NCBI GenBank assembly: GCA_048213135.1
Contig: PS015103.1
Coordinates: 57,856-120,562 of the forward strand
Source of the DNA: Reclinomonas americana ATCC 50394
Taxonomy: Eukaryota
Direction of reading: 5' to 3'
DNA length: 62,707 nt
The notes below the pieces were generated by a model. The model saw nothing but the letters and a program-made list of their open reading frames with translations. It did not search any database and had not been told where the DNA came from. Below, one piece after another: positions 1,958-61,927 of this stretch. The stretch's first letter is position 1. Every line of letters starts with the position of its first letter. Position numbers and translations under genes: made by a program.

Positions 1958-4900
1958 NNNNNNNNNNNNNNNNNNNNNNNNNNNNNNNNNNNNNNNNNNN
2001 NNNNNNNNNNNNNNNNNNNNNNNNNNNNNNNNNNNNNNNNNNNNNNNNNNNNNNNNNNNNNNNNNNNNNNNNNNNNNNNNNNNNNNNNNNNNNNNNNNNN
2101 NNNNNNNNNNNNNNNNNNNNNNNNNNNNNNNNNNNNNNNNNNNNNNNNNNNNNNNNNNNNNNNNNNNNNNNNNNNNNNNNNNNNNNNNNNNNNNNNNNNN
2201 NNNNNNNNNNNNNNNNNNNNNNNNNNNNNNNNNNNNNNNNNNNNNNNNNNNNNNNNNNNNNNNNNNNNNNNNNNNNNNNNNNNNNNNNNNNNNNNNNNNN
2301 NNNNNNNNNNNNNNNNNNNNNNNNNNNNNNNNNNNNNNNNNNNNNNNNNNNNNNNNNNNNNNNNNNNNNNNNNNNNNNNNNNNNNNNNNNNNNNNNNNNN
2401 NNNNNNNNNNNNNNNNNNNNNNNNNNNNNNNNNNNNNNNNNNNNNNNNNNNNNNNNNNNNNNNNNNNNNNNNNNNNNNNNNNNNNNNNNNNNNNNNNNNN
2501 NNNNNNNNNNNNNNNNNNNNNNNNNNNNNNNNNNNNNNNNNNNNNNNNNNNNNNNNNNNNNNNNNNNNNNNNNNNNNNNNNNNNNNNNNNNNNNNNNNNN
2601 NNNNNNNNNNNNNNNNNNNNNNNNNNNNNNNNNNNNNNNNNNNNNNNNNNNNNNNNNNNNNNNNNNNNNNNNNNNNNNNNNNNNNNNNNGAAGACTGTAC
2701 GTGTGCGCGCATGGCATGTGAGGGAGAGAGTAAGTGATTGGCACCGTGAGTGTGCTAGTTTGTATGATCGTGATGGTGAACGTGAGGAAGACCGTGCGTG
2801 TGCGCGTGGCATGTGAGGTAGAGAGTAAGTGATTGGCACCGTGAGTGTGTGCGCACATGCTTGTTTGTGTGCCTGTATGCGTGTCTGTGTGCGCCTTATT
2901 ATCGAAACTCCTTTCCCCAAACTTGTCTTGCCTCTCTGTGTAGCCCTCATTTCCCTTCCTTTCTGTCTCCTTTTTTTTGCAGTCCCGCCGCCGCGACCTG
3001 GACGCACCGGCCTCCTGGGAAGACCTCGACCGCGAACGCGCCCTGGTCGCCACCGCCGACTCCACCCTACTGCTGACCATTGCCACCGCCGACGCCGTGT
3101 GGGAATCGTGGCACATTGCCAAGGAGATGGAGGAGCTCTGCTTGCCACCGCTGCAGGATCCAGCCGAATTGGAGACGGAGCTGACAGAAGCACTGCAACG
3201 CATCGTGTCTCGAGTTGCGCTCTCTTCCGTCCGCTCTCCTTCTGTCTCTTTCTTTCAGCTTGAGACTAGTCTGACGCTTCTCTCCTCCCCCCCCCCCGCT
3301 ATATCATCCCCTTCCGTCCTCTCCTTCGCCTTGTCGTTTCCCCTCCGTTATCCCTGTCCATCTTCCATCCATCTTTATCAAATTTATCTTCCGCTCGTCC
3401 CTTCCCTTACCCTTTGCCTGTATCCGTCGTTCCTCTCTTTCTTTTCTCTCTTTCTTTCCCGTCTTTGCCATGTGTATTCCCGCACCGTTTTCGCTGTTCT
3501 TCTGTCATACCTCCTCCTTCCATGCAGTCTTCCCTCTCCTTCCATCTCTCCGTTTGATTGCCCTCCCCCCATCCCCTTCCGTCTTCCACCCTTTCCTCTT
3601 CTCAGTCCCTCTTCCCTCACCCCCCTTTCCCTTCTCCTTTTCTCCTCCCCCCTTCCCTTTCCCTTCCCCGCATCCCTTCCCTTTTCCTCTTTCCCCTTTT
3701 CCTCACCCTTCCCCCTCACGTGCAGGCCACCGCCCGCCTCCTGGAGGTCCGCGGCGACCCCGTAGCCCTCACCGCCGTGCTCCGCACCCTAGCCTTTGTC
3801 AGCACCGTGCTGGTGGACACGGGCACCTCGCACGCCGAGGTCTTTGGCGCCTCCTCCAGCAGCTGGTTCAAGCACTGGCTGTATCAGCGATTGGCCGACA
3901 TTCGCGACGATCCGCACATCTCGGTGCACGCGCGCACCACGGCCGCGTACACGCTGCAGGCGCTGCTGAGCACGTACGCCGTCAACTCGGACCTGCGTTT
4001 CGATCTCGGCCGCGTGCACCGCTCCATGACCAACCTCACCGCGCCCACCACCTCCTTCCGCAAGCGCTTCCCGATGCAATTCGTCGGCAACTCGTCGGCG
4101 CCGGCCGATCACCCGCTGAGTGCGTGGTACGTCGACACGCGACGTGTGTGGTGCCAGTGCGAGATTGTGCGTTTCCTCGACCGCACTCTGTCGCACAACG
4201 AGGCGGTGGCGGCGTGTGACGAGCTGCAGAACATGATTCGCACTTCGTATCACCTGAACCAGACGCCGTGGGTGAGTGTTTTCTTTGCGGTGAGGGAGCG
4301 AATGGTAACTCTCGGTGGCTCGCTCACTTCGCTGCCCGCCAGTTTCTCTGTTGTGCCATTGACGGCCTGGTGTGGCTCTCTGTCGGCTGCTCCATGACGG
4401 CACTGCGCAACTCGGCCGTGCGTACCATTGGCGCCATTCTCGACGACGAGGCCACGTACGGCAATGATCCGGCTGTGCGGTGCAAGGTGAGTGAGGTTGC
4501 ATACACACACGCGCGAACACAGATCACCACCTACGCGTCCACGAACAGAGGCACACGCCCTCTCTCACACACACTCACGCACACACATGTGCATGCATGC
4601 TCATCCGCACGAACACATTCATGCGCACATTCAGACACACATAAACACAGGAATGGCACACACGCACAGAGCCTCGCAAGGTACACGCTCTAATGCTCAC
4701 TCATGAACACGCATCCTCACATACCCTCTCGCATACACACACACTGTCTCTGTTGCACATCATTTTGTCAATCTCCTCATTTTCTCTTCTATGGTCTTGT
4801 CACGCGTATGCTGTGCTGTGTACACGCATACGCATGTCAACACATGAACAGGCTCTCCTGCACACACACACACACACACACGCGCGAACACACACACACA

Positions 4901-7900
4901 CATAAACACAGGAACGGCACACGCAAGATACTCGCACAAATTCACGCTCATGAACACACATCCTCACAAGCAGACGCGCGCCGTCTCGCACACAGACCCG
5001 TACGCATACGCACAAATCAGTCTCACTCTTCTCTCTCGGTTACACGTCTCCGTGTCAATCTCCTCGTTTCTCTTCACACGTATGCTGTGCTGTGTACATG
5101 CATACACAATGCAAACATGAACAAGCCCTCATGCACACACACACATGCACGCACATACACGCATACTGTCTCTCTCTCCGTGCATCACATCTCCATCCCC
5201 TCATTTTCTTCTATTGTCTCTTCCTCATCCTCTTTCCCACCCTCTCACCTTCTCGATACGCAGGCCATCTCCGCCCTTCGCATGCTGGACAACCCCGGCT
5301 CCCCCTGCGCGGTGGCCGTGTTCGAGATCATTGAGCGACTGAAGGAGGCGGCGGAGACGAAACCACGCAAGACGTTCCTCTCGCGTCTGCGCAACCTCGC
5401 CGGTCACCACTCGGCCGCCGACCATGAGCGACAGTTGCTGCACGAGCTGGTCGAGGACCTCGGCGACAATGTGTACCAGTCGGGATTTGTGCCGATGAGT
5501 GAGGATGTTGCGTTGGCACGCTTGCAATCCATTCTTGCTGCCTTTTCTCCTGATCTCACCCCTTTTCTCTCCGTGTCCCTCTCTCGTTCTCTCTTGTGAC
5601 CGCTGTCCATTCCCCTTCCTTACCTCGATCAGGTCGGCGACCAACTGCGCCTAATGTCCGACGTGCGAAGTGTGGAGCAACTCGAGCTGGAGCTGATGCA
5701 CAAGGCGGCGGAGAATGCCATTCCCACCGAGGCCGTCAGCCCCACCTCCAGCGCCATGCCGATGCAGCCGAAATGGGACTCCTCCAAGGAGCGCACCTAT
5801 GTGCAGCTACCGGCGTTTGAGATTGACCGTGCCGAAGACGCGGCCACCAACGACGTGGTGTTGTCGTGCATGGAGTTTGTGCATCGCTTCTTCCGCGGTC
5901 AGTATCCAGCCTCGCACCCGATGGCGGTGATTTTGGGACCGCCCGGCTCGGGCAAGACGGCGGTGAGCTTGGAAATCGAGCGGCAATTGTGGGTCGAGCA
6001 CGACCAGCACGGCAACGTGGTGCCGTTGTGGATCGACGTGTCGGCGTGCCAGCGACTGAACGGCGACGTGTCGGGTGCCGTGCGACGCGCCCTTGAGTTG
6101 TACATGACCGAGACCGACGACGAGCATCCGGATGCGCGCTCCGTCGACGCCAATCACTTGACGCATGTGGCGATTCTCGATGGGTGGGGCGATCTGATGG
6201 ACGCCGAGGAGAAGTTGCTCGACGACGCGGTGGAGTGGGACAGCTGGATTCCGTGGCGTTTTTGTGTGATTGTCACGTGCCGCTCCGACGCCTACCAGCG
6301 CATTCTCACGCGCCATCCGCTGCGTGGCGGCTTTGACCGCGCCTACCTCAAGTACTCTCTTGGCGAGTTTGAGGAGCCAGAAATTGGCGCGTGGGTGACA
6401 CAGGAGCTGCCGTCGCCGCAGGTGGGTGGAAGATGGGGATGGAGGAAGGATGAGAGGGAGAGGGAGGGATGAGAGACGGAAACGAGGGTTGAAGGCACAG
6501 CTGCCACAGCAGAGATTGTTTGTGTCGAGGGCTGTTTGACGATGGGAAAGGGCACGAACACTGAACGTCTGCCATTCCTCTCGCCGTGTTTTGAGAAGAG
6601 GACTTACGCCACAACAGCAGCAGTTTTGATAGTTTTTTGGCATGGTCTTAAGGGCATTTTCGTCTGTCACTCCTCCATCTGAGAGAGAGAGAGAGAGAAA
6701 GAAGATGAAGTGGGGGTCAACATTGCTTGACAAAGCTAAAGCTGCCAGTTTGCCAGTGAGGCGCAAATACTTAAACATCAGTCATTCTTTCTCACTGCTG
6801 CTTTTGTCTGTTTGTGTGAGTTGGGCAAGCGAGGAGGGAAGAAGGCGAGAGAGACAGAGAGAGTGAGAGGGAGACAACATGNNNNNNNNNNNNNNNNNNN
6901 NNNNNNNNNNNNNNNNNNNNNNNNNNNNNNNNNNNNNNNNNNNNNNNNNNNNNNNNNNNNNNNNNNNNNNNNNNNNNNNNNNNNNNNNNNNNNNNNNNNN
7001 NNNNNNNNNNNNNNNNNNNNNNNNNNNNNNNNNNNNNNNNNNNNNNNNNNNNNNNNNNNNNNNNNNNNNNNNNNNNNNNNNNNNNNNNNNNNNNNNNNNN
7101 NNNNNNNNNNNNNNNNNNNNNNNNNNNNNNNNNNNNNNNNNNNNNNNNNNNNNNNNNNNNNNNNNNNNNNNNNNNNNNNNNNNNNNNNNNNNNNNNNNNN
7201 NNNNNNNNNNNNNNNNNNNNNNNNNNNNNNNNNNNNNNNNNNNNNNNNNNNNNNNNNNNNNNNNNNNNNNNNNNNNNNNNNNNNNNNNNNNNNNNNNNNN
7301 NNNNNNNNNNNNNNNNNNNNNNNNNNNNNNNNNNNNNNNNNNNNNNNNNNNNNNNNNNNNNNNNNNNNNNNNNNNNNNNNNNNNNNNNNNNNNNNNNNNN
7401 NNNNNNNNNNNNNNNNNNNNNNNNNNNNNNNNNNNNNNNNNNNNNNNNNNNNNNNNNNNNNNNNNNNNNNNNNNNNNNNNNAACGTCACAGCAGAAGTTT
7501 TTCGGGATGCGACTGCGTCTGCCATTCTTTGACCAGTCTGCACGTGTATGTGTGTCTTAGCCAAAGGAGAAGGGAAGAAGTCGGGGAATGCAGAAAGAGA
7601 GAGAGAGCATGAATTGCTAAAGATGCCTTGTTGGCATGGTTCGTGTTGACTTCTGGGATTGTTTCGTGAGAGCGGGACGAATGGGATTATCTGTCACTCT
7701 TCTCTCTGTTCGTGTTCGTGTTTCTGTCAATAACGAAGCATGCACTGTCAGAGATGCCACGCTTCTCTCTGTGCTGTCGTGAAAAGAGCGATATCTTCCT
7801 CCTCACTTCCCTCTCTCTCTCCCTTCTCATTTTCCCTCCCTCCCACCCTTCGCAGTCCGACGAAGTCCTCCACCGCCTTCCCCTGATTCCCGGCCTGCTA

Positions 7901-12540: not shown

Positions 12541-15500
12541 TCAAAAGTCCTCCTCCTCGTCCTCAAAGTTGTACTCGATGGCGTCGCCATTGACGGTGCT
12601 CTGGAAGGGTGCCAGGGAGGCCACGGCCGTCGCTGTCGTCGTACCACCAGTAGGGGTCTCGCCGCGCGGCACTGGTCGCTTGCCGACACGAGCAGCAATG
12701 CTACTGCTGCTGCTGCCGTTGCCACCAGCACCGCTGGCACCACCGGCCAGCGCGCCTGCCGGCAAGGTCTCCTGCGATCGTCGGTGAGCGGCACTCGTCT
12801 CCAACTCGCTCCATCGCGGACCCCGAGCCGATGTCGGCTCCTCGTCTCCTGGCGAGCCGACAGTCTCCAGCGCCGCCGTGGTCGAGCGCGACCGCGGTCG
12901 CTCAGTGACCTCTTGACCGTCGCCGTGCACCGGTGAGAACACCGGCAGCCGACTGCGTGGAGCCGACGGAGTGGCCGTGTTGCGACGCGATTGCGGGCGT
13001 GAGCGTGTTACCCGGCCCGATCCGCTGCCATTGGCCGAATCCTGTGGACCATGATCAGCAATCAGGGAGAAACCCCTCCTCTTGCTTCTGCAATAAACAA
13101 AATTGACAAACCGGCTGCGGGATGTGTGATACACCACCCGGCGGCGGCGTGGCCGTCAGGCGATCCATCATCGTATCGCGCTCGGCCAGGTTGCGATCCA
13201 GGTAGTGCACAGTGAGGTCGAGGCGGCGCACCTCCTCGCGCAGATTGTGCACCTCCGAGTTGGCCTGCTGCTTCTCGGCCTCCTGCTTGGCCAGCTCCTC
13301 CTGCAGTCGGTGCAACTCGCTCTGGATCTCATTGATGCGACGACGCTTCTCTTCCACCGTGCTCTCCTGCGCAGCACGCGAGAGTTGAGAAGAGCGATCA
13401 AAGATGAGGAGAGAGAAAGAGGAGGAGGACCTTGAGTTTCGAGGAAATGTACAAGTGTCGCACGCGCTCCTTGGTCTCCTGCGTGGACGACAGCTTGCCG
13501 CGCAGATCGCGATTGTCGGCCTCCGTTCTCCTCAGCGCGTCGTTCATCGCCTTTTCGGTCTTGCGCATGCTGGCCACCTCCTCTTCCATCTTGATAATGT
13601 ACTTGAGGTCCTAGTGCGCACAAGAAACACATATGATTTGAGTGACGACAACAGAAATCAAAGGAGCACCGACGCATCGCACCTTGACGGTGGCCAGTCG
13701 GCGTCGCAGTGCATTCAGCTTCTTCTCCAACTCCTCACGCTGCTTCTCGGCCTCGGCGTTGAAGCCGGCCAGCTCTGTTTCCAGCGTCTGTACCTGGGCA
13801 CGCAGTCGCTCCGCCTCGGCTACCGCCTTGCGTTCCGTCTGCGCTGCTGCCGCTGCCTTTTCCTCGGCCTGCGGTGATACAAGGAGGGAGGGAGAGATTA
13901 AGAGACGACTTCGAATCATTGACATGCTCTCTCTCTCTCTCTCGAGTCACACCTCCTGCTTTTCTTCCATTGCATCGTGCACTTGCATCTCGAGAGTCTT
14001 GGCGCGATCCTGCTCGCGGCGAAGTCTCTCTTCGAACGACGCCGTCAGCATGCGCTTGTCGGCCTCCTGTGCATCGAGAAGAGCGTGAGTACATCGGGAT
14101 GATTGGGAAGGAGAATCGCCATGCCCGCACGCAACCCAATCATCCATCGACGTGGGTTTTGACTGAGCGGCGAGCTGCGCTCCACGCTTCTCGGCCTCGG
14201 CGACGGCAGCCGCCATGGCGCGTGAATGCTCCGCCTTGAGTTCGGCACGCAACCTGTCAATCTCAGTGCGCTTCTCGGCCTCCACCTGCCGCAAGCGCTC
14301 CTCCGCTTCGCGTGTTCGTGTGAGATTCTGCGAGCTAACTCGCTCGGCCTCGGCCACCGCCACCTCCAGTGCCTCCTTCTCGCCACGCAGGCGGGTCACT
14401 GTCGGTGCCCACATGGGCGACGCCTCGCGGTGGGGCTCGGCAAACAGCTGACGCGGCAGCTGGCCGTACTCGGCGAGCATCTGCTGCTCGCGGCCATTCG
14501 TCGGCACCGGGGCGTTGGTGCCGTAGAACGCTGCGAGAAGGGGAAGGGATGGGGGTGAGAAGGAGGAGGAACGGGGGAAAGGTGGGAAAGGTGGGAAGGG
14601 GAAGGGAATGAGAGAGAGGGGGTGGGGAGAGAGAGGAGGGGGGGGTGGGGAGAGAGAGAGAGAGAGAGAGAGTTGGGTCTCACTCTGCGTGTCGTGGTCG
14701 TGCAGANNNNNNNNNNNNNNNNNNNNNNNNNNNNNNNNNNNNNNNNNNNNNNNNNNNNNNNNNNNNNNNNNNNNNNNNNNNNNNNNNNNNNNNNNNNNNN
14801 NNNNNNNNNNNNNNNNNNNNNNNNNNNNNNNNNNNNNNNNNNNNNNNNNNNNNNNNNNNNNNNNNNNNNNNNNNNNNNNNNNNNNNNNNNNNNNNNNNNN
14901 NNNNNNNNNNNNNNNNNNNNNNNNNNNNNNNNNNNNNNNNNNNNNNNNNNNNNNNNNNNNNNNNNNNNNNNNNNNNNNNNNNNNNNNNNNNNNNNNNNNN
15001 NNNNNNNNNNNNNNNNNNNNNNNNNNNNNNNNNNNNNNNNNNNNNNNNNNNNNNNNNNNNNNNNNNNNNNNNNNNNNNNNNNNNNNNNNNNNNNNNNNNN
15101 NNNNNNNNNNNNNNNNNNNNNNNNNNNNNNNNNNNNNNNNNNNNNNNNNNNNNNNNNNNNNNNNNNNNNNNNNNNNNNNNNNNNNNNNNNNNNNNNNNNN
15201 NNNNNNNNNNNNNNNNNNNNNNNNNNNNNNNNNNNNNNNNNNNNNNNNNNNNNNNNNNNNNNNNNNNNNNNNNNNNNNNNNNNNNNNNNNNNNNNNNNNN
15301 NNNNNNNNNNNNNNNNNNNNNNNNNNNNNNNNNNNNNNNNNNNNNNNNNNNNNNNNNNNNNNNNNNNNNNNNNNNNNNNNNNNNNNNNNNNNNNNNNNNN
15401 NNNNNNNNNNNNNNNNNNNNNNNNNNNAAATTGAGATCAGCACACCAAAGAAGGAGTGAATCGGATAGTACAAGACGACGCAACTGCCAGCCCACGGCGG

Positions 15501-18031: not shown

Positions 18032-20056
18032 TCACGCCGCCTTGACGGTGCTCTTGCCCACCAGCACAAACGATGACGGGTCGGCATCCGGCCGCACCTT
18101 GCCGTGCTCGTCGTACAACGGATTCGGCGTGTACGTGTCAAACAGATGATCCCACACATTCAGCACAAATCCGAAATTGGTCCCCGGCTGTGCAGACGCA
18201 GACGCACACGTCAGCAAAACACCTCGGCGAGTGGGCACACACATGCGCACGGGTGGTGGCGGTGCATGCGGCATCACGCCCGACGACCGCCGCACGGTAA
18301 GTCGGCGGTGCGACATCGAAAAAATCCTGCTGTGAGAACGCAACTCGCGCATGATGCACGTCGTGCGACACGGCGCCACCTCCAAGCGCAAACGGCAGCA
18401 GCCTGTCCAGCGAGAACCATACATTGTGGCCAGCGTGTTCCTCGACCAGGAAGACGACCCATACCGCCACAAACACCCAGAACGACAGCGGGTGCACGCC
18501 AACGGTCACCGGCGTGACGACCTGGGTCAAAATCACCACAGCATCCTCGGCTGGGTGCACCCAACCTGCAAGCGCGCGCACACACACACGCAAAGCACGA
18601 GCAGAGAGAGCTGATCAGTGCGACTTGCCTCACATAATGCGCGCGTGGCATCCGTTGTCACAGAGTGAGGCGTAGAGAGAGTGGGAGTGAAAAAGTGAAA
18701 TCGAGAGGAAGCGAGGTCACAGTCGATTCGAGTGGTCGCTCTGTGTGTGGCGCTTGGAAGAAGAGTGGGTGAGTGCGCGAAGGAGCGATGCAGTGAGTGT
18801 GTGAGTGTGCGCTGGGAAGAGAGGAGCACAAGCGCAACAAGCCAGCTGCAGGGAACAGATCGATTCGATCGTGCAACACCACGTCGTGCGCGGCGAGCTG
18901 CACACTGACTCACACCGTGGCGTCGGCAAACGGGCAAAGTGAGAGCGCATGAGCAAGTGTGTGCGCGCGTGTGTGTGAGAGAGAAGAAGAAGAGGGAACA
19001 CAAACCACGACAAGCGAGAAAGAGAAGCAAACCACGCGCTCTCCTTTCTNNNNNNNNNNNNNNNNNNNNNNNNNNNNNNNNNNNNNNNNNNNNNNNNNNN
19101 NNNNNNNNNNNNNNNNNNNNNNNNNNNNNNNNNNNNNNNNNNNNNNNNNNNNNNNNNNNNNNNNNNNNNNNNNNNNNNNNNNNNNNNNNNNNNNNNNNNN
19201 NNNNNNNNNNNNNNNNNNNNNNNNNNNNNNNNNNNNNNNNNNNNNNNNNNNNNNNNNNNNNNNNNNNNNNNNNNNNNNNNNNNNNNNNNNNNNNNNNNNN
19301 NNNNNNNNCCCTCCCTCCCCTCACCTCCACCCCAGCAGAACGGGCGGGTGTACTTGTGATGCGTCGAATGAATATTATCGCGCAGCCACGGCACCGCATG
19401 CATAATGCGATGCTCCCAGTAGATCAAAAAGTCACCGGCGACCAGGCACAAGAAGAACTCCATCACAAATTGCGGCAGCGTCGGCGCCAGCTCCGGCAGC
19501 TCAATCGTCGTCGGCGACACCAAATACGTCACTCCGTTGGCGCCAATGTAGATGAGCGTCTGTGGCCAGGCCGCCGCCCAAATNNNNNNNNNNNNNNNNN
19601 NNNNNNNNNNNNNNNNNNNNNNNNNNNNNNNNNNNNNNNNNNNNNNNNNNNNNNNNNNNNNNNNNNNNNNNNNNNNNNNNNNNNATCATGCACCGTCGGG
19701 AAGGTGTACGGCGGCGTTTTGGTATCCATGTTTTGCGTCAGGTCGAGATACGTGAAATACGTGCAAATGGCGAAAAAGACCACGAGACCGACAACCGACG
19801 GAAAGAGCCACCAGGCGACCAGTGGCGATCCATGCGTGACAATGAATGACCATACGGGCTGAAGGAGGCGCTTCTCGCTGGCTTGCGCGGCCACGAATCC
19901 AAAATATGCGCACGCGCACAACAGCATCGCACCCACGGTCAAGCCCATGGCACGATCGGTGCGGTGCGAGTGTTGGACATTGGAGGGCGTGCCATCCTGC
20001 TCCTGGTTGCTGTTGTTGTGGCTGTTGTGGTGAGGTGATGACGTCGACTGCATCAT
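18032..20056 (-). CDS. Sterol desaturase / fatty acid hydroxylase family membrane di-iron enzyme (C4-methylsterol oxidase / CH25H-like)
   Basis: His boxes YWEHRIMH, NIHSTHH, EEHAGH and HDVHH, then PGTNFGFVLNVWDHLFDTY. Exons about 20056-19325 (with an internal gap), 18565-18345 and 18187-18032. Confidence 0.9.
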
Positions 20057-20701: not shown

Positions 20702-21826
20702 ATGAGCGCCGAGTCTCCCATCGCCTCACAAAGAGCAGGTACCCTCCTCCTCTCCCTCCCTCACTCCCTCCCTCCTTCTCCACCTCACTGACACACACAC
20801 GTCGTTGCCTCTCTCAAGAATCAGACATTCGCAACTCTCCCGAGATGTTTGCGTGGCGCGTCCACCTGGAGCTGCAAGAGAAACTGCATCGCGAGCAAGC
20901 AGAGCGCGAGCGCCAAGCATACCTCCTCCAACACGAGCGCATGTTGGCCGTTTCGTCTATCTTCTCACACTCACAGCACGCGCAATCGTCCAATCAACTT
21001 TTCCGCCTTGCGCAGGAGATCATGGCCTCGGGTCCCTCTCCACTCACCGCCTCCCCCGCGCCTACACAAGCCTTATCCGTCGGTTACGCCAGCGATGAGC
21101 TGCGATTGGACGCGCAGATCCGTCGACTCGGCCACGTGCTGCACGCGGCCAACTTGGGCACTCTGACGGGCGGTGGATCGGCATCGGTGGACGCTGTGGG
21201 CGCGGCATTGGCTCGCATACGCAGTGGCAAGTCGCCGCCTTCTGCTCCGGCCTCGCCTGTTGTGCGAGCAATGACGCCACCACCGCCACCACCGGTTGAA
21301 ACACGGCCGGACATTCGTCATTTGGTGGCCGATCCCAAGGTTCCATCGCTGCTGCTGCTGCTTCGTTGCGTTATCGGTGCTTACCATCTAGGTGTACTCT
21401 CAGAGTGCGTCAATGGTGCCGGAGTTGCGCGCGCTGCTGGCCCAGCGGCAACGCATTGCGCAGGAGGTGACGATGACGACGTCGAATTCTTCGTCGCCGG
21501 CGGGTTCGGCGCCGCAGACGCCAGTGCTGGCGCCGGTGGCGAGCAAGGAGGACACGCCACCGCAGACGCCGGCGTCGTTTGCGGAGATGTTTGCGCGGTT
21601 GCAGGCGACGACGACCACGCCACCGCAGGTGCCGTCGCCGCTGTTGAAGCCGTTGCCGGCGGCGGAGGTGGCGGCGATCTCCAGTGGTGTTGTGGGGGGT
21701 GTGCCGTTGGAGCCGGTGGGTAAGCTGCCGGATCCGGCGGGTGCGCGGCCACCGCCACCTACCGGGCATGGTGGGTTGTCGTTGTTGTTGCGACAGGCGA
21801 CGGGTGGCGGCAAGGCCGTGGCGTGA
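20702..21826 (+). CDS. Uncharacterised protein with a short coiled coil and a Pro/Ser/Thr-rich region (3' end uncertain)
   Basis: ATG at 20702 and GT-AG exons that keep frame (MSAESPIASQRA|DIRNSPEMFAWRVHLELQEKLHREQAE..|EIMASG..DPK|VYSQSASMVPELRALL..). No recognisable domain. Confidence 0.55.
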
Positions 21827-22973
21827 GTGGGGGAGTGTGTGTGGGGGGAGGAAGAAGGCAGACTGCAAAGTGTAAGTATCATTGTGCGATTGTGCAGATA
21901 GTGAGAGTGAGGGAAAGAGGAGGAGGGGNNNNNNNNNNNNNNNNNNNNNNNNNNNNNNNNNNNNNNNNNNNNNNNNNNNNNNNNNNNNNNNNNNNNNNNN
22001 NNNNNNNNNNNNNNTGGCCGTGACTGCCACTCACAAAAGATCGAGTCTCTCCCTCCTCTCCCTCTCCCCCTCCCCCCTCCCCCTCCCCCTCTCTCCCTCA
22101 CTCTCACCTGCATAATCGCACAATGATACTTACAACTGGCAGACTGCAGCAACACCCACAACCCCACTCACGCCACAGCTTTGCCGCCACCCTCCCCCTC
22201 TCNNNNNNNNNNNNNNNNNNNNTTGGTCGGTGGATGGTCGACCCGACGATAACATGACAACAGGTTGCGCAACGAAACAGTGTCGTGTCGCATTGATGGC
22301 CGTTGCTTGTGCGTTTTCACATTGCCGTGTTACCGTTTCCTCCGACAGCATTCTCGCTGGCCAGCAAATCCTCTGAGGCAGTCCGTTCTCCGGAATGCGA
22401 CGGGTTGATGCTTCAGCACGGACCGAGTCGTGGTCGATTTGCTTCATGCCTCCGACAGCGTTTCGCACTGGCCTTCAAAGCCGTGACATGTACAACCAGT
22501 GGATGCAGGTTCATTATCTGTTCTCTACTGTGATTTCCTCCGCAGCAGAGGCCCTGCACGTGTGGAAGTTCATAATCGACACGAGGTGACAACTTTTGTC
22601 GGGTCCTTCCAAGCAAACCTCTTTTTCAAACTTGCTGTTGCGTACTCCGACCAACAACGCAGAGGCCACCTCCCATCCTACCTCCACGCAACCTCAGCGT
22701 GCCAGCTGCCTCGTGGCGACCCGCAGACAACATTTGTCGGATTAATATTTTCAGTCGTAAGCGTATGCCGTCTTGTTCCAATTCGACGTGAAGTCGACCC
22801 TGACCTTGTCGTCTCTTCGACTTTGACGGAGAGTGCGCCATTTGCTATATTGATTATATCGTTCGGGAGAGCGGTTACCACCACACATGCTTCTCGTCGA
22901 CTCACCGACGTCAACCGTCCCGTCACGCCAACAGTCACGCAATTCTTCGACTCTCTCTTCGAGCACACCTCGC

Positions 22974-38382: not shown

Positions 38383-39072
38383 AAGAAGTCGCGGGGTTAG
38401 AGGGAGTCGGCAATGCTCTTCTGCCTCTGTTCATCTCTTCCCTCATCGCTGTGTGCCTGTGGTGTCGACGAATGACACTCTTCCTTCGCTGTTTCTCTCC
38501 CTTGCCAAAGCGATAGCTGCGTGCCTCAGTGACGATTTTCTTTCTGTCGTTGCCTTTGAGGAGTCCGTGAGAGCACAGAGCTGTTTCCACACGTTTAGCC
38601 GGAGCGAGGGAGAGAGATGAAATGCACAGTAATACTAAGTTCAGTCACTCCATCTCTTTTATCCTGTGACATGGGGAGTGGTAAGTGTGCCTCGTTGGCA
38701 CTCTTCTCTCTCCGTCTTGTCTTTGCCTCTGAGAATGTGGAAGATTAGACTGTGAAAGCAAGCATGTGTTGTTGCATTCTTTCACGACGGACACAGAGAA
38801 AGAGAGCGAGGGAGTTTTCGTTTCTTTTTGCAAAAATGTGCTGCTAACAACTTTGCGACATCAGTGCCCGGTGTCGTCACGTCGTCCACAACCGTGGCTG
38901 GTGCTGGCGCCTCGTCGTCTTCAACTCCGGCAGCAGCGACGACAGCCGCAGCTCCTGTCACTCTCCGTTGCGTACCAACTCCTCCTTCAATCCCTCCTCG
39001 CTTCCACAGACCACTCACAGTTTGCCAACAGCGCCCGACTACGAGCCGGTGGGCAGCTTGGACGACGAGTAG
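34084..39072 (+). CDS. PUF60: Poly(U)-binding splicing factor PUF60-like: RS-rich N-terminus, RRM1, RRM2 and a UHM-type RRM3
   Basis: RVYIGNM..DPSTYRHKGWCFVEY..MGGRNLRVGRP; RLYVGSI..NPETKTHKGYAFVEY..LGGRQLKVG; LILRNML..DLESEVLSEAVKFG..HGRVFGGHKV. Last exons are 38865-38966 and 39031-39072 (TAG). One apparent frameshift near 35575, beside a gap. Confidence 0.85.
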
Positions 39073-39388: not shown

Positions 39389-41037
39389 TTAGATCAGCAT
39401 CACCACTGTGGCAAACGCCACAGCAATGGCCGAGGACACCGCAAAGACGTAGTTGGTCTCGCGGCGCTTCTGGTCACGGAATTCGCGCATGTGGCGCGGC
39501 ATCGGTTTCTTCCCAGTACCCTGTGTTTTTTTAGGGGGGAGGTGAGGTGCGGTGTATGTTGCTTTCCATGTATTGTAGAGACGCAACGTCGGGGTTCCAT
39601 TGCTGGAAAGAGGAGAGGGGGTGATTGTGAGCGACAGTATCAACAAAATGAGATCGTCAAGTAAAACACACGCTCACCCCGCGGTAAATCATGCCTCATT
39701 GGCCCTTCTGACCCATCCAGAACACGGTGAATCCAGAGCCAAACGTCTGCAAGGAGGATGAGTGCCAACAACTCACTTCAACTCTTGCAGCGACACATAA
39801 CGCAACGAAAAAGAGCGCAGCGCCGCGCCACCACAGCTCGCGCTGTCCGTGCCACAGGTACGACATGTAGAGCGAGGTCAGCACCAGCGCGATGCCGGCG
39901 TAGAAACGGATCTTGCGGTCGGTGGAGCAGGTGATGTAGCCGCGCTGCGGGGGAGGAGGAGAAAGGGTGAGGACGAAGGGCGAGGAGAAGGAAGGAGTGA
40001 GGGAGAAGGGAGGATGAAGGAGTTGGGGGAGTGAGGGAGAAGGTGTAGGAGTGAGGAAGCAGTCGGAAGGGCAAGGAAGGAGGATGAAGGAGTTGGGGGA
40101 GTGAGGGAGAACGGAAGAGCGAAGGAGAAGGGACGGGTGAGGGAGACGGGAGAAGTGAAGGAGAAGCGCAGTGGGAGGACAATGGGAACGGGCGAGACAA
40201 GAGTACAGTGGATGAGAGGAAGGGCAGAAAATGCGACAAGTGCAAGCATGCGAGTGCACAGCCAGTCACAATCAACAGCCAATAGACAGAGTTCAGCATG
40301 GCAAGAGGAGATATTGTCGCAGAACGCAAGGTGATAACAGAAAAGACTGCACGTCGATGACGGTCACGAACGAGGAGACAGTACAGGATCAAGGGAGGAC
40401 GATGCAACAGGGTGCAAAGGCACAAGAGAAGAGCACCGCATGCCATTTGTCAATCACATGCAGAGAAGGTGACACGAGAAGAAGAAGAAGAAGAAGAGGA
40501 GACACTGCACGGAGAAATTACAAGCAAACAATGCAAGCAATCAATCAATCACGCAAAGAGAGAGAGAGAGAGAGAGAGTAAGGCACATGCACGCAAGGAG
40601 AACAGTGTCTCTCTTGTTTATGACTCTCTCTTGTGTGTGCAAGTGTGTATGTGTGAAAGAGAGAGAGTGAGTGAGAAAGTGAGTGAGAGAGCGAGTGAGA
40701 GAGAAGAACAGTGTCTCTCTCGCCGTCTTTATGACTCTCTCTCTCTTGTGTGAGTGAGTGTGTGTGTGAGTGTGAGAGAGAGGCAAACACGCAAGACTCT
40801 CTCACCCTCTTTATGACTCTCTCTCTCTCTCTAGTGTGTGAGAGTTTGAGAGAGGCAGACACATTGGAAGAACAGTGTCTCTCTCGCCCTCTTTGTGACT
40901 CTCTCTCTCTCTCTCTCTCGCGTGTGTGAGAGAGAGAGACAGAGAGCTGCACACAAATCACTCTCATTCATTCACTGCACCTTGAGGTTATACTCGGGAG
41001 TATCCGGCACATCTGCCGCATCCACAGCACCACTCAT
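39389..41037 (-). CDS. Small multi-pass membrane selenoprotein (MSP-like), 136 aa, with Sec82 encoded by in-frame TGA
   Basis: Exons 41037-40981, 39944-39807, 39746-39678, 39602-39588 and 39520-39389, all GT-AG and phase 0, give MSGAVDAADVPDTPEYNLK RGYITCSTDRKIRFYAGIALVLTSLYMSYLWHGQRELWWRGAALFF TFGSGFTVFWMGQKGQ-U-GMIYRG QWNPD GTGKKPMPRHMREFRDQKRRETNYVFAVSSAIAVAFATVVMLI*. TGA at 39698-39696; SECIS downstream. Confidence 0.8.
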
Positions 41038-44012: not shown

Positions 44013-47000
44013 ATGAGCGACGCAGACGACTTCCCCGTGCAAATCGCACGTGCCTCCTCCCTGCGCGCGACAGCTGCAGAGGGCGATCAGCCACAAGCAG
44101 GAGGAGGAGCAGGAGGGGAAGAGGAGTTCCCTCCACTGATGTTCTATGGATGGGGATTGGACTTTTTGCAGTCGACCGAGCTGCGAGAGCAGGTCGAGGA
44201 GCAGGAGCAGGAGGAGGAAGAGAGGAAGTTGGGTGGATATTGTCATCATAATGGGAGAAGATGAAGGGATGAATGCCAGTCAGTCAGTCTCTCTCTGTCT
44301 CTCAGATTCGTTGTCTCTCTGCCTCTCAGTCTCTCTCTGCCTCTCAGTCTCCCTGTCTCTCTGTGTCTCTCAGTCTCTCTCAGTCTCTCAGTCTCTCAGT
44401 CTCCCTGTCTCTCTGTGTCTCAGTCTCAGTCTCTCTGCCTCACTGCCTCTCTGCCTCTCGTCTCTCTGTCTCTCAGATTCGTTGTCTCTCTGCCTCTCAG
44501 TTTCTCTCAGCCTCTCAGTCTCTCAGTCACTCAGTCTCGCAGCCCCTGAGTCTCTAAGTCTTCCTCTCCCTGTCTCTCTGTGTCTCTCAGTCTCTCTGTT
44601 GCTCCATCTCTCAGCCTCTCAGCCTCCCTGTCTCTCCTGTCTCTTGTCTCCCTCCCTATCCCTTTCCTTCCCTCTCCTCCCTCCTTTTCTCCATTCCCAC
44701 CTCCTCCCATCTCCTTCATTTCCTTCTCCCTTTTCCTTTCCTTCCCCCTTCTCCCTTCTCCCCTCCCTTTCCCTCACCCTTGCCCTTCTCCCTGCTCAGC
44801 ACCCTGGACATCCTCAACGACTTCCTCGGCGACTACACCGGAGTCGTGCAGGTCGCCTGCGGCGACACCCACCTCCTCTTCCTCACCGGCACGGGCGAGG
44901 TGTTCGCCGTCGGCTCAGGCGCGCATGGCAAGTGCGGTCAGGGCGACGCCAGCGATCAGTACTCTCCCGTGCAAGTGGAAGGCCTGCCGGAGGAGACGCC
45001 GGTGCTGTTTGTGGCCGCCGGCAAGGACTCCTCACTCTGCATCACTGCCGAGTTGCGTGTGGACGAGGGCGCGCGGCAGCGAGGCGACGACGCTCCCACA
45101 CTCTCACTCACTCCTTCGCTTTCTTGCAGTTTCCGCGTGTGGGGTTGGGGACGTGGTGTGTCTGGTGAACTCGGGCACGGCAGATCGGGATCCGAGCTGA
45201 CGCCGGTGCCAATGGCATTTGCACACGGTGGGCGCGTGTATGAGTGTGCGCTGGGAGAGTGCCACGGTGCCATGCAGATTGGTGCGTGCTCTAATATTCT
45301 CAATTCGTACGAGCGCTGGCGGAGGACTAATGTGCATTGAGTGCAGAGACGGGAGAAATGTACACGTTTGGCGACAACACGCGCAGTGCACTGGGCATTG
45401 GCGAGGCCGAGTGCCATCTGGCGCCGCGCTTCGTGCCCGACTTGCTCGGCCTGTGCATGTCGGGCATGGCCTGCGGACCGCACGTCACGGCAGCCATTTC
45501 TGATCAGGGCGCACTCTACGTGTGGGGCGACAACACCTACGGCCAGCTCGGACTCGGGCACACCAAGCGAGTACCGCGTGCCACTCACCTCGACGTGGGC
45601 GACGCAGTGACCATGGTGGCATTTGGCGTAGGGCACATGGTGGTGCTGACGAGTTGCGTGGAGAGCAGCGGCGTCCCTCATTTGTTCAAGTCCATGCTCC
45701 AGCACATTCTCGTCCAGCATCTCCAGTCTCATTCTCTTCTCTCTCGAGTTTATTCCTCAATACCGCCATGTGCACCACTCTCTCTCCCTCTTCGTCTGCA
45801 TGTCTCGTCATCTTGTTTCAACTCATCCTTCCTCCACGCCCACTTCTCTCTCCTCTGCTTTCCCGCTGCTTTCATTCTCATTCTCACCCCTCTGCCGCTC
45901 TGCCATGTCCATACTCCTCCTTTCTTCTCCTCTCCCTTCCCTTCTTCGTCTTCATGTCGTGCCATGTTTTCGGCCGAGCCTCCTTACTGTCCACTCTTCT
46001 CGCCGCTGCGATCCCCGTTGTGTTCCATCATTCTTTCCATTGTCATGTTGTTTTCAATACCGCCGCTCAGCCATGTCCATGCTCCTCCTTTTCTTCTTCT
46101 CTCCCTCCTCGTCTTCGTCTGCGTGTTGTGCCACCACGTCCACTTATCTCTCCTCGGCTTTCATTCTCGTTGTCCTCTCGCTCGAGTTTATTCTTCAATA
46201 CCGCCATCCATACTCCCTTTCTTCTCCTCTCCCTTCCCTTCTTCGTCTTCATGTCGTGCCATGTTTTTCGGCCCAGCCTCCTAACAATGTCCACTCTTCT
46301 CACCGCTGCAATCCCTGTTGTGTTCTATCATTCTTTCCCTTGTCAAGTTGTTTTCAATACCGCCGCTCAGCCATGTCCATGCTCCTCCTTTCTTCTCCTC
46401 TCCTTCCCTCCCCTTCTTCGTCTTCATGTCGTGCCATGTTTTTCGGCCCAGCCCACCACCACGTCCATTTATCTCTCCTCTGCTTTCATTCTCGATGTCC
46501 TCTCACTCGAGTTTATTCTTCAATACCGCCATCCATACTCTTTTGCTTCCCCCGCTCTCTCCCCTTCTTCGTCTGCATATCCTCGCCTTGTTTCGACCCA
46601 GCCTCCCACCAACTTCACTCTCCTCTCCTCTGCACACTCTTCATTCGTTTGCACTCGCAGTACTCTCACATCCAACATCACCCGGTCGCACACGACCTTC
46701 TCATTCCCTCTCGCCACCAACCACGGCCATTCCTCTCTCCTCTGCACTCCTTGTTTGATGTTTCTTATTCTCGTCAACCGTTTCCTGCTCGTGCATTTTC
46801 TTCTGCCTCTCGAGTTGTTTTCAATACCGCCGCGACCATGTCCATACTCCTCTCTTTCTCGCTCTTCTTCTCGTTTTTCGTCTGCATTTCCCGTGTAGTT
46901 TCACCCAGCCGCTCAACAACCGCCACTCTTCTCCCCCTTCATTCCTTCCCTCCCTCTGGATTTGTTCAATACCGCCGCGACCATGTCCATACTCCTCCCT

Positions 47001-55682: not shown

Positions 55683-57884
55683 ATGAATCGCGCACATGGA
55701 GCCCACGATGACGAAGACGACGACGACATGCCCGCCACCTCCACCTCAACAACAACAACAACGACAGCACCACCACCACCGCCACCACCACCACCGCCTG
55801 CTCCTCGATCCGTGCCGGCACATGCAAGACGAATGATGGAGGACGAGGCCTCAGCGTCGTCGTCGTACTCCTCTTCCTCCTCCTCCTCTTCGTCTTCCTC
55901 CTCGTCATTATCGCGACCGCGCGCCCGTATCGCCGATGTCAATGCGACCGCCACCGCCCTGCTCATGGTTCCGCAAGGTCAACGTGCTACGGGGACAACC
56001 ACCGGGCGTCGTGGTGTGGTGGGCCTGGCACGACTGGAAATGCTGCCGCCGGAGGAGTGTTCGCCGGAGCTGTGTGCACTGCTGGTGCATGCCGCGCGGC
56101 ACGTGCGAGTGCGCTTCCGTCCTAGCACCGAGCGTAACAAGCCCGCCAGTGGCTCGTCGTCCACCTCCACCTCCACCACAACGACCACCACCACCACAAC
56201 GACCACCACCACGGCAGCGAACCTTGTATCGCCTATCACCACTGCTGCTGCGCCTCCTCCAGATGACAACGGCGGCGGCGACGAGTACAACGGCGCGTCT
56301 AGGTCAGATGCAGGCGTCACGTGCAGCGAGGTCATTGTGCTGCATCCGGCCTTCACTGCGGAAGCCGCTCCGAAACGAGGTGCCGTCCGCACGGCCAAGC
56401 GCCTAGTCGTCGGCGCTCTCCGCACCATGGTCAACGACTTTATCCGAGCACACACCACCGAGTTGCGTTGGCCATTGGGGAGGAGGAGGAGGAGACTGCA
56501 TCGATACTGCGCATGCTGCTAACAAACTCCGTTTGTTTTTCTTGTGTCTGTTTCTGTGTGCAGGATTCCAGAGTTGCAAAAAGTTGCGTAAGCGTCGGTG
56601 GCGGCGACGGCGGAAGTGTTACATGTGAAGTATCATCGTTGTGTGCGCGCGTGCTTGCGTGCGCGGTCTGTGGTTTCTTCTTGTGCGTTCAGTCGGTGTG
56701 AGATACAGTGTCCCTTGCCGGTATTCCTGCCGAAACTGTGACGCAACACTCACTCTTGGTGTGTGTCCCCTACAGACCTCGCTCGTGTGGAAGACGTTTC
56801 TGCAACACGCCAGTATCCTCGACACGAAGCGTTTCTACGATGCACTCGACTGGGAGGGTGAGCTCAGTTGGCAGTGCGCGTGCGGTTTCATTCCCTCTCC
56901 TCACTGACTCGTCTTCCCTCGACAGGAGACGGAGTCACTGTGGTGTTCTCCACATCGCCACTCGGCCAGCAGCTGATGGAGCTCTCGCGACAGCTCGACT
57001 CGATCGACATGTGCATCACCACTCCGCACACGGTGACCATCACCACAGCCACTGGCGGACGAGCGCAGACTCCCACCACCACCGTCACCATCACCACCAC
57101 CACAACAACAACAACGGCGGCGGCGGCAACGATGGACGAGCACATGTCGGGCGCCTCGTCCGCCTCTGGTAGTCGCCGCAGCTCGCCACGGGCGCGGCAG
57201 AGCAAGCGCGGAGTGCGCGGACGACGCATGCAACCGTCGCCCAACACCTATCTGGACCTGGAGGCGTACGATGTGCATCAGCAGGCCGGCGACGAGGACT
57301 CGGAGGCCTCGTCGGTCTCTCGCGCCTCGTCGTCCTCTCGCTCCATGCTGCTCACCGACGACGTCGACGAGGACCACGACATGATGCCGCCCTCTGTCGA
57401 GTCCCTCTCACGTCGTTCTTCGCTCTCCTCGCCACCTCCCGCGCACCACGCCGCTCCATTGCCATCACCACTGCCAGCGGCCATTGACTCGCCGCCATCG
57501 GCCATGGATCGCGACGAGGAGGCCGCGCACATACAACGCACGCTCACCCTCGCCGCCATGGCTGCCAGCGCGTGGAATGCCTCCTCGCGTCGCCTCTCGC
57601 CTCGAGCTGCCACCTCACCGCTGCGAGCGGGGGCAGCACGAACGACTGCCATACCTCCTCAACCGCCACCACCACCACCACCGCTACCACTTCCAGTGGT
57701 GACGCCAGCAGTTCCGCGCACTCCCACGCCCGTGGAGGCCTCGTTTGAGTACATGCTGAGCGAGACGCAGCGGTTGTGGGCGCGACAGCAGTTGCTGGCG
57801 CAGCAACAGCAGCAAGGAGGAGGAGGGGGAAGTGCGAGCCCGAGTGCGAGGAGTGACACCACGCCTCCTCCTCCTCCCAAGTAG
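55683..57884 (+). CDS. Uncharacterised low-complexity protein with a central globular segment
   Basis: ATG at 55683. Exons 55683-56461, 56564-56582, 56776-56858 and 56926-57884 keep frame (..MVNDFIRAHTTE IPELQK TSLVWKTFLQHASILDTKRFYDALDWE GDGVTVVFSTSPLGQQLMELSRQLDSID..). Stop TAG at 57882-57884. Confidence 0.65.
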
Positions 57885-60567: not shown

Positions 60568-61927
60568 CTGACATGCGAGCATGTGTTTTGCGGGGATTGC
60601 ATCCTGAAGTGGCTGGCGCAGGCGTCGACGTGCCCCGTGTGTCGCCATCGTGCGCACATGGGCAACGTGGCGCCTGTCGATCGCGTCATTGGGCAGCTCA
60701 TTGGCGATCTGCGCCTGCATTGTGGCAACTGGGAGCCGACGCGACCCGACGACGCGGCCGTGTCGTGTCCGTGGGTGGGCGAGTTGTCGGCGGTCGATGC
60801 ACACATGAATGAGTGCGGCTACGTGCGGGTGCGCTGTGATCATTGTCGGCGGGAGCACAGGCGACGGGAGGCGCGGGAGCATGCGGAGGTGTGTCATCGG
60901 CGACCGGTGCCGTGCACGTACTGTGGGGAGATGGTGCCGCGGGAGCGCATGGCGTTGCATTGCGATGCCGAGTGCACCTATCTCCACGTACAATGTCCGA
61001 ATGGGTGCGGTCGTCGCGTGAAACGCGAGGATGTCGGCGCGCACCTCGAGCAGGTGAGAAACGGGGAAGCGGATTTCATGGCGCTTTCGTGTCACGCTGA
61101 CTCTTTTTCTTGTTCTCCCAGGCCTGTCCGCTGCAAGAGGCACCGTGCGCCTACGTTGAATTCGGTTGCTCACATCGCGGTCTCCGCGTGGATCTGCCGA
61201 ACCACGAGAAGGCGGCCGCCGCGCATCACCTGCAACTCGTCACCATCAACATGAGCGAGGCGCTGCAGAACCAGGACGAAGTCATTTCGGTGCTGCGTGC
61301 TGAATTGGCGTCCAGAGACACCCAGTTGCGTGCATCCATTCTCACACTCTTCTTCTGTCATGCTTTGGGATCTCATCTCTCGCACACCGCAGGATCGATC
61401 AGCTGCGTCGCGATGTGGCCGCCATTAGCGAGCTGCTCCCGGCACTGGAGCTGGTGACGGGCCGTCGGCGCATGGTGCAGGCGTCGCCGAATAACTCGGC
61501 TGTGCTACTGGCCTCCTCCGAGTACTCTGGCAACACCGCTCCATCGGCGTCCTCGCCATCGCCTGTTCCTGCGCACACCGCCGTCCGCACCGACCGACCA
61601 CCCTCTGGCCGCTCGCTCTTTCACCCGTACAACGCGGGCCAGTCGCTAGCCGCCGCCATGTCGCTGCCGCCGCCTCCACCACCACCGCCGCCACCGCCGC
61701 CACCACTGGTTGCCGCTCCCTCGGCGGCAGCCGGGCACGCGCATTTGCATCTGCAGAACAACCACCACCACCACCACCACCATCGCTCCGATGAGCAAGA
61801 CTCTGGGTCGTCGTCGTCCGCCGTGGTGCCGCCAGCGCGGTCACCGTCGTGCCAGGCCGCCCTCCGTGAGCTGCAACAGGAGACTCGCGAGTTCACTCGA
61901 CAGATTCGCACGCACCAACAGCAGCAA

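Follow-up and report, generated by a model that had tools for sequence, protein, structure and literature searches.

An abundant GTTGCG class of 5' splice sites in Reclinomonas americana and its apparent one-nucleotide displacement

Pairing between U1 small nuclear RNA (snRNA) and 5' splice sites outside the standard register is known as a rare human exception. Shifted and bulged registers have both been proven in human cells (PMC4856993), and a validated shifted site reaches -6.5 kcal/mol (PMC4856993, Table 2) because it forms a contiguous helix from +4 onward, which a GCGU block cannot form. Altered readers are also on record: the diplonemid S. specki has an alternative U1 with a changed 5' end (PMC12621601), and human variant U1s are reported to be expressed (PMC3561869). 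Here we describe a stretch of the Reclinomonas americana ATCC 50394 genome (GenBank assembly GCA_048213135.1, contig PS015103.1, positions 57,856 to 120,562 of the forward strand; all 62,707 nucleotides (nt) are called the window, and positions are counted from its first base) in which the leading 5' splice-site (donor) motif, A/GTTGCGT with the slash at the cleavage site, would barely be bound by the universal U1 end. Our gene models indicate that A/GTT[G/T]CG[T/C] is a genuine and abundant donor class, used by roughly one in four or five introns of the window. An original prediction, made from the sequence by a model, had listed 19 GTTGCG donors, whose motifs all stand at the coordinates and on the strands given, together with four GTTTCGT sites and one GTTGGGT site, which also lie where it had placed them.

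Abundance of the GTTGCG donors and the junctions they form

Introns were placed with a dynamic-programming gene finder that used a 3-periodic second-order coding model and allowed introns of 35-400 nt from any GT to any AG. Its acceptor matrix and length distribution were learned iteratively and its donor information was the GT alone, hence the term donor-blind. The final run yielded 94 introns across 29 genes, including a high-confidence subset of 38 (45-135 nt, YAG acceptor, both neighbouring exons at least 45 nt long with a positive coding score). GTTGCG was the top donor hexamer, at 10/94 introns and at 7/38 in the subset; among heptamers GTTGCGT led with 7, and GTTGCGC, GTTTCGT, GTGCGTG, GTGAGTG, GTGGAAG and GTCGGTG followed with 3 each. 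A frequency no higher than independent positions predict had been named beforehand as the outcome that would speak against the class, and GTTGCG exceeded it in both sets, with expectations of 0.87 among the 94 introns (P=2e-8) and 0.59 among the 38 (P=2e-6). GTTGCGT was the top donor even in an early, noisy version of the gene finder based on codon usage.

The excess was also visible before any gene model was applied: GTTGCG occurred 60 times on the two strands compared with 40.3±6.6 in 100 dinucleotide-preserving shuffles, none of which reached 60. GTTGCGT accounted for 27 occurrences in the window, and T stood at +7 in 17 of the 19 listed sites. When each copy of a hexamer was forced to act as a donor and counted as fitting at a cost of no more than 2 nats, 17/60 GTTGCG sites fitted, compared with 12/350 random GT sites (Fisher P=1e-8), 5/26 for GTTTCG, 10/94 for GTGAGT, 7/73 for GTGCGT and 9/123 for GTGAGA. 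The resulting excess over the random rate, 14.9 sites, was the largest of 17 hexamers (GTGAGT 6.8, GTGCGT 4.5). This test undercounts, because it penalises certain true sites such as 18344 (-12.3).

A second run, in which a first-order donor model was learned iteratively, gave 142 introns, 20 of them with GTTGCG[TC] donors, and called many spurious micro-exons within the tandem repeats of 31-34 kb and 45.7-47.4 kb; since it over-predicts in repeats, it was used only after the same filtering as above, which left 33 introns. The share of GTTGCG introns thus ranged from 18% (7/38, donor-blind high-confidence) to 27% (9/33, filtered learned-donor run), in agreement with the "about a quarter" originally proposed. 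The donor-blind optimum contained 10 of the 24 listed sites; a further 7 carried a cost of 0.3-3.7 nats and the last 7 a higher one. Of these costliest seven, three were rescued, 18344 and 15484 by homology and 29709 by a manual transmembrane-exon model. One listed donor, 30216, looks wrong with its Arg-rich frame, and the donor-blind optimum added three GTTGCGC donors that the list had lacked (22264, 36188 and 36328).

Homology allowed the cleavage position to be assessed at the first four of the following five sites.

35929..35994, plus strand: 66-nt intron, aca/GTTGCGTTT...TAGCAG/gat, splitting RRM1 of a PUF60-like gene; donor-blind optimum
26761..26834, plus strand: 74-nt intron, cat/GTTGCGTGC...CACAG/caa, at the end of RRM2 in a second RRM gene; donor-blind optimum
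45052..45129, plus strand: 78-nt intron, cga/GTTGCGTGT...TTGCAG/ttt, between two RCC1 blades; donor-blind optimum
18188..18344, minus strand: 157-nt intron, cga/GTTGCGTTC...GCACAG/ccg, in a fatty-acid hydroxylase gene; the Pfam FA_hydroxylase match stops at the donor
15478..15484, minus strand: donor gca/GTTGCGTCG of a FAN-like BEACH gene, with an intron that enters an N-masked stretch; homology ends at the donor

Judged by these alignments, all four testable junctions (35929, 26761, 45052 and 18344) need cleavage exactly at A/GT, and at each the homology argued against a frame-preserving GC donor 3 nt downstream. At 35929, the Pfam RRM_1 match to profile positions 1-32 stopped at the end of the upstream exon and positions 34-70 resumed at residue 3 of the next. 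The splice gives an FG-to-HKG loop of 16 residues (TMSPTDPSTYR). Among 96 pattern matches in PUF60-like homologues this loop had 15 residues in 74 and 16 in one (P0165, SMSPIDPATGR), and the 17 residues that a GC donor would create were found in none; the ten matches with 18 arise, as far as they are listed, from another FG three residues upstream within the same proteins. Splicing at 26761 restores FGGEP-I-KVEW, with a spacing equal, compared by eye, to FHGRALKVEW in RRM1 of the same protein. At 45052 the RCC1 profile was complete (50/50) two residues ahead of the exon end and the next repeat began at residue 2 of the next exon, so that the joined ITADFRVWGWG places W at T+8 as in two sister blades. 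Splicing from 18344 to 18188 yields HDVHHAR/PGTNFGFVLNVWDHLF, that is HH, five residues and NFG..WD, a short spacing that we take to be typical of the fatty-acid hydroxylase family; the gene finder's own donor at 18242 would add 34 residues between the histidine box and NFG. At 15484, tblastn matches of BEACH homologues stopped at 15480-15489, and Pfam Beach positions 147-185 stopped at residue 41 of the frame 15429-15605 (minus strand), which is the donor.

Beyond the donor, these introns resembled their neighbours. In a comparison of 20 GTTGCG/GTTTCG-class introns with 20 canonical introns, the branch motif CTNAY was present in 17/20 of each, at a median of 19 nt (class) and 20 nt (canonical) from the 3' splice site; median lengths were 69 and 70 nt, and 19/20 in each group ended in a CAG acceptor. 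Because the remainder of the intron matches that of canonical introns, we conclude that the class is removed by the same U2-type machinery. U12-type introns start with the donor [AG]TATCCTT and have, near the 3' splice site, the branch motif TCCTTAAC; the donor here is GTTGCG and the branch motifs are ordinary. With four junctions that restore domain spacing, and with 10 of the 24 listed sites and three new ones in the donor-blind optimum, the class consists of ordinary U2-type GT-AG introns with an unusual donor. The two kinds of donor are interleaved: the ten introns of the PUF60-like gene begin with GTTGCG (three), GTGAGT (two), GTTTCG, GTTCGT, GTGAAG, GTGCGT and GTGAGG (one each).

The displaced frame, U1 pairing and candidate readers

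The bases flanking the cleavage site suggest that the class is read one nucleotide out of frame. The original tally of the -1 base over the 19 GTTGCG sites was exact (A 12, C 4, T 2, G 1). A at -1 was found in 12/19 sites compared with 2/21 curated canonical donors (Fisher P=7e-4) and 9/41 of the remaining GTTGCG sites in the window (P=0.003), and G at -1 in 1/19 compared with 14/21 (Fisher P=6e-5). Canonical donors in the window are GTG[A/C]G[T/A/C] with G at -1. In the donor-blind high-confidence set, donors with T at +3 had C at +5 in 10/15 and G at +6 in 11/15, and donors with G at +3 had G at +5 in 13/18. Both the exchange of G for A at -1 and that of +5 G for +6 G back the proposal that A/GTTGCGT is AG/GTGCGT cleaved one base further to the left. 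It is highly probable, in our estimation, that the class is real and is also read in the displaced frame.

The wider proposal, that these donors equal the common donors of the genome with one T inserted, stands for GTGCGT, which GTTGCGT matches when shifted, and falls short for GTGAG. Among canonical donors GTGAG is no rarer than GTGCG, yet GTTGAG has no credible donor: three sites fitted in the donor-blind model, and none was counted because two lie opposite a supported minus-strand gene and the other (11661) uses a weak GAG acceptor. The window holds a single GTTGAGT and no GTTAAGT, and C at +5 is invariant in GTTGCG and GTTTCG.

Two further features of the donors are recorded here as observations in their own right. 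A at +3 was nearly absent (1/38 in the donor-blind high-confidence set) and none of the 14 GTAAGT copies in the window was donor-compatible, an uncommon state for a genome with about 50% GC that may relate to what the reader RNA places opposite +3. Donor-blind donors were also placed at 9532 (plus strand, aag/GTTTGCGCA), which could be a two-nucleotide displacement of GCG and might indicate that out-of-register donors form a broader family, and at 30269 (minus strand, cat/GTTTGCTGC).

Pairing was calculated with ViennaRNA duplexfold for the standard U1 5' end as printed in Table 2 of PMC4856993, in all registers and with bulges and loops allowed; the organism's own U1 may differ. The mean best duplex was -6.84 kcal/mol for canonical donors (n=21), -2.47 for random GT sites (n=350) and -1.45 for GTTGCG donors (n=19), so that canonical donors were clearly separated from random (P=2e-8) and the GTTGCG donors differed from it, if at all, in the wrong direction (P=0.06). 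With explicit registers, the GTTGCG motif gave 0.0 kcal/mol in the +1 register, +0.9 in the canonical one and +2.2 with a bulged U. The flanks are therefore displaced by one nucleotide as a shifted register predicts (-1 A, +6 G), while stable pairing that is clearly better at +1 was not found with the generic U1 end; the scarcity of -1 G (1/19, compared with 14/21 canonical) also departs from what a +2/+3 bulge would require. The likening of these donors to human A/GUUAAGU sites read by ordinary U1 was thus not borne out, given a mean duplex weaker than random and a +1 register at 0.0. Ordinary U1 accounts for the -1 A, but not for the specificity, the invariant C(+5) or the missing A(+5) forms, and from these models we infer that its 5' end probably could not supply the specificity of the class.

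We favour a lineage-specific RNA adaptation that would read the eight-nucleotide motif, because ordinary U1 does no better than random, C(+5) is a mismatch and the A(+5) forms are absent. In the displaced frame, A(-1)G(+1) stands where A(-2)G(-1) usually lies, while G(+4)C(+5)G(+6)U(+7) corresponds to +3 to +6 of GUGCGU, a donor form native to this genome. The least demanding proposal for the reader is either an additional U1 species or a U1 whose 5' end is altered; it would pair with A/GUUGCGU in the shifted frame and carry G opposite C(+5), leaving the GUGAGU and GUGCGU donors of the same genes to standard U1. We scanned 1,789 hypothetical U1 ends carrying no more than three substitutions. 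Of all single changes, G at position 5 performed best, and it was present in 9 of the 15 best ends. One two-substitution end would reach -9.9 kcal/mol for the GTTGCG class, and for no single end did the gain over random exceed about 2.8 kcal/mol in both donor classes; such a scan of modelled ends generates a hypothesis and is not evidence. We think that the fallback offered by the original prediction, a lineage-specific code or variant U1/U6, was the better half of its inference. For the whole explanation, a real displaced-frame donor class read through a lineage-specific snRNA adaptation, we estimate a probability of about 0.4. One form of it is a major spliceosome with two readers: between a fifth and a quarter of all introns would depend on a dedicated U1-like snRNA and the others on standard U1, with U2 and U6 shared by both. 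We regard this form as somewhat unlikely.

Several points weigh against this explanation. Few RNA sequences of eukaryotes are as conserved as the 5' end of U1. Canonical and GTTGCG donors are adjacent in the same genes (in the PUF60-like gene three GTTGCG, one GTTTCG and six others), and because both donor classes share genes the favoured idea needs two U1 species. An Rfam search of the window returned no match at gathering thresholds, U1 and U6 included, and at E values up to 1 it returned 11 weak non-spliceosomal matches, chance hits to microRNA and small nucleolar RNA families driven by microsatellites. Neither pseudouridine nor the U1-C and Luc7 proteins enter into nearest-neighbour energies. 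We built the gene models ourselves from a single 62.7-kb window in which 5823 bases are masked, all junctions are predicted from sequence and gene models, and 34182, 38967, 56583, 45653 and 44228 are candidate donors.

The displaced frame might also be read by ordinary snRNAs only, with standard U1 acting in the +1 register or with U(+3) bulged, U1-C or other proteins helping, and U6 and U5 fixing the GU. The preference for -1 A and the scarcity of -1 G agree with the prediction of the +1 register and are opposite to that of a bulge, both registers have the human precedent given above, and the motif is one substitution from the consensus AG/GUGCGU with ordinary 3' signals. The shifted helix, however, would consist of three 2-bp blocks split by mismatches, summing to the 0.0 kcal/mol already noted; the best-register mean does not exceed that of random GT sites; the invariant C(+5) would lie opposite pseudouridine 5; and the better binders GTTGAGT and GTTAAGT (-5.2 compared with -1.8 kcal/mol) are essentially absent from the window. 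In humans, registers of this kind also make up only a minor share, the +2/+3 bulge for instance being listed for 68 5' splice sites (PMC4856993, Table 3), and here the motif is the top donor. We regard this route as somewhat unlikely. The same weakness of predicted U1 pairing, together with strict conservation at positions that U1 would not pair, could point to a sequence-specific protein or a U1-independent route, for example a UUGCGU-binding factor with U6 and U5 selecting the GU. No candidate protein was identified in this analysis, and an eight-nucleotide motif fixed relative to cleavage looks more like RNA pairing, by which U11 reads the donor motif of U12-type introns, so we consider a protein reader improbable.

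The remaining possibilities concern the sites themselves. The true donors might be GC donors 3 nt downstream (GTT/GCGT) or other nearby GT sites, or a T might have been miscalled in AG/GTGCGT; the junctions rest on sequence, a GC donor would keep the same reading frame, and 7 of the 24 listed sites were poor in the donor-blind model. Against such errors, the GT donor gave the family spacing at 4/4 homology-testable junctions, where a GC donor adds a residue, and the motif ranked first before any donor model was used. A base-calling artefact is ruled out because an exon 1 nt longer would break the frame, and GGTGCG is intact at other donors, such as 27043 and 13682; mis-modelling as a whole seems very improbable. 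The identical 7 nt with which many of these introns begin might instead be the end of a mobile 'introner' element that seeded them recently. Intron lengths and internal sequences differ, and an all-against-all blastn comparison of 20 class and 20 canonical introns returned only low-complexity matches of 11-15 nt (E at least 0.01), from which we conclude that the class introns are not copies of a mobile element; of all the accounts considered here this one has the least chance of being correct, and a negligible one.

Further donors and the surrounding genes

The other catalogued sites are given below, GTTGCG donors before GTTTCGT and GTTGGGT donors; costs are those of the donor-blind model.

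5507..5632, plus strand: 126-nt intron, gat/GTTGCGTTG...GATCAG/gtc; donor-blind optimum and high-confidence set
14067..14135, minus strand: 69-nt intron, tgg/GTTGCGTGC...GCACAG/gag, the sole listed site with G at -1; donor-blind optimum and high-confidence set
30574..30635, minus strand: 62-nt intron, tga/GTTGCGTTC...CCACAG/cca, in a membrane-protein gene; donor-blind optimum and high-confidence set
39747..39806, minus strand: 60-nt intron, ttc/GTTGCGTTA...TTGCAG/acg; donor-blind optimum
36188..36264, plus strand: 77-nt intron, ctc/GTTGCGCTC...GCGCAG/cca, PUF60-like gene, newly added; donor-blind optimum and high-confidence set
36328..36394, plus strand: 67-nt intron, tca/GTTGCGCGC...GCACAG/ttc, PUF60-like gene, newly added; donor-blind optimum and high-confidence set
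22264..22348, plus strand: 85-nt intron, cag/GTTGCGCAA...GACAG/cat, newly added; donor-blind optimum
61325..61392, plus strand: 68-nt intron, cca/GTTGCGTGC...CCGCAG/gat, RING/TRAF zinc-finger gene; costs 1.8 nats, picked by the learned-donor run
3214..3220, plus strand: donor cga/GTTGCGC, acceptor uncertain (3527 in the model); costs 1.0 nat
56462..56468, plus strand: donor cga/GTTGCGT, acceptor uncertain; costs 0.3 nat, with a CTAAC branch motif downstream
30458..30526, minus strand: 69-nt intron, aca/GTTGCGCAT...ACAAAG/cct; costs 1.9 nats, with a weak AAG acceptor
39521..39587, minus strand: 67-nt intron, gac/GTTGCGTCT...ACACAG/ggt; costs 2.6 nats
29657..29709, minus strand: 53-nt intron, cac/GTTGCGTCC...TCGCAG/acc, after a 41-nt exon; costs 15.6 nats
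45653..45659, plus strand: candidate donor cga/GTTGCGTGG, just past the RCC1-like domain, where the WD40_RLD profile ends (363/363) at 45646
34182..34188, plus strand: candidate donor gaa/GTTGCGTGT; costs 11-19 nats, no homology
38967..38973, plus strand: candidate donor tcc/GTTGCGTAC; costs 5.4 nats, with an implied intron of 43 nt, the shortest here
56583..56589, plus strand: candidate donor aaa/GTTGCGTAA; costs 8.9 nats
20950..21015, plus strand: 66-nt intron, gcc/GTTTCGTCT...GCGCAG/gag (GTTTCGT); donor-blind optimum and high-confidence set
23489..23572, plus strand: 84-nt intron, aga/GTTTCGTCT...AACAG/caa (GTTTCGT); donor-blind optimum
36912..36967, plus strand: 56-nt intron, aat/GTTTCGTTG...TCGCAG/gtg (GTTTCGT), PUF60-like gene; donor-blind optimum and high-confidence set
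30210..30216, minus strand: doubtful donor gct/GTTTCGTC (GTTTCGT); costs 3.7 nats
44228..44234, plus strand: candidate donor gaa/GTTGGGTG (GTTGGGT); costs 2.3 nats, with a 387-nt intron in the model

Four listed sites lie in the membrane-protein gene and were judged by hand only, because a homologue search with its read-through frame returned no match. For 29709, the structure originally proposed, rebuilt by hand, would yield a sensible transmembrane stretch, ...FNQVG ITLGFVLAAAVIH TDDDVFRLLLGV. The site at 30216 is doubtful because, from either nearby acceptor, the membrane protein would continue in a frame that is rich in Arg or improbable in other ways. At 45653 the acceptor could not be fixed, and a CT-rich repeat comes next.

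The window is eukaryotic DNA with 17 masked runs (5,823 N) and a GC content of 0.37 to 0.56 in 5-kb bins, mainly about 0.5. A Pfam scan of 150 stop-to-stop frames and 94 predicted exons identified ordinary eukaryotic genes: RCC1-like, FAN-like BEACH, RING/TRAF zinc-finger and fatty-acid hydroxylase genes, two RRM proteins (one PUF60-like), NYN, WD40 and pentapeptide-repeat genes, and a molybdopterin-binding (FAD-synthase-like) protein. Homologues of the PUF60-like exons shared at most 53% identity and were named from early-diverging fungi, a rhizarian, a mollusc, a flatworm and Palpitomonas, and homologue searches with RCC1 and BEACH exons did not find a close relative. ARAGORN found no transfer RNA in the window. 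A metagenome scan gave one locus (L001), a 10-residue chance match in AT-rich (37% GC), bacterial-looking DNA, which was discarded. An early version of the gene finder with an acceptor matrix added was likewise dropped, having over-split genes into 332 introns.

Around the PUF60-like gene, an exon at 35103-35618 (plus strand) with an Arg/Ser/His-rich, RS-like low-complexity tail lies directly 5', and a 35-nt micro-exon at 36595-36629 (plus strand) lies within RRM2, where RRM_1 positions 1-30 precede it and 43-70 follow, so that it supplies the missing 12 positions. The WD40 gene at 10856-12143 (plus strand) is real and was overridden in the learned-donor run by a spurious minus-strand chain, so the present gene models call for some care. 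Intergenic tandem repeats at 31400-34000, whose units measure about 150-166 nt and 118 nt, together with GA/CT/GT microsatellites, hold GTTGCG copies and acceptor-like CT-rich tracts that mislead the gene finder. A CT-rich repetitive stretch at 45700-47370 (plus strand) with recurring CCATGTCCATGCTCC units, either a long intron or a gene boundary, separates the end of the RCC1-like domain (profile 363/363) from a second RCC1-like segment (profile 50-119, 47377-47622). A P-loop NTPase exon (GPPGSGKT) with weak NACHT/AAA matches under the Pfam cut-offs was situated at 5633-6424 (plus strand), and pentapeptide-repeat exons at 8890-10080 (plus strand), a few kb downstream.

Comparison with known splice-site systems

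Full-text literature searches, with subscription journals and supplements outside their scope, returned no report of a GTTGCG donor motif; those for the motif itself yielded primers and unrelated sequences, and others covered U1 co-evolution and variant U1. If our explanation is correct, these introns would provide a natural system for how the cleavage site becomes fixed when recognition is out of register, for the limits to which a 5' splice-site code can drift, and for whether several 5' splice-site readers can operate in the major spliceosome. In practice, a gene finder whose training relied on GTRAGT-like donors will mis-annotate about a quarter of the introns of this genome.

U12-type introns offer one parallel, as they too place a second, sharply conserved donor beside degenerate major-class donors in the same genes, with a donor motif read by its own snRNA. 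Unlike them, the class described here does not have the [AG]TATCCTT donor, and its branch site is an ordinary CTNAY at an ordinary distance. The closest likeness in sequence is to the human +1 shifted-register sites (reference 10 and Figure 1B of PMC4856993): in both, cleavage is at a GU followed by U, -1 is not G, the consensus-like block lies one nucleotide deeper, and the +5 G is gone while a +6 G is present. The human sites differ in forming their contiguous helix from +4 (AAGUAU, -6.5 kcal/mol), compared with GCGU and a mismatch at 0.0 here, and in being rare, whereas GTTGCG is the commonest donor hexamer in the window. Bulged and asymmetric-loop registers (PMC4856993, Tables 2 and 3) are similar in that the extra nucleotide after GU could loop out, but a bulge predicts -1 G and costs +2.2 kcal/mol with -1 A, and -1 G was found at 1/19 sites. 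Variant U1s of S. specki (PMC12621601) and human (PMC3561869) provide a precedent for changed 5' ends that could read non-standard donors; the two U1s of S. specki are reported (PMC12621601) to fit the same 5' splice-site logo about equally and do not correspond to two discrete donor classes, as we postulate for R. americana.

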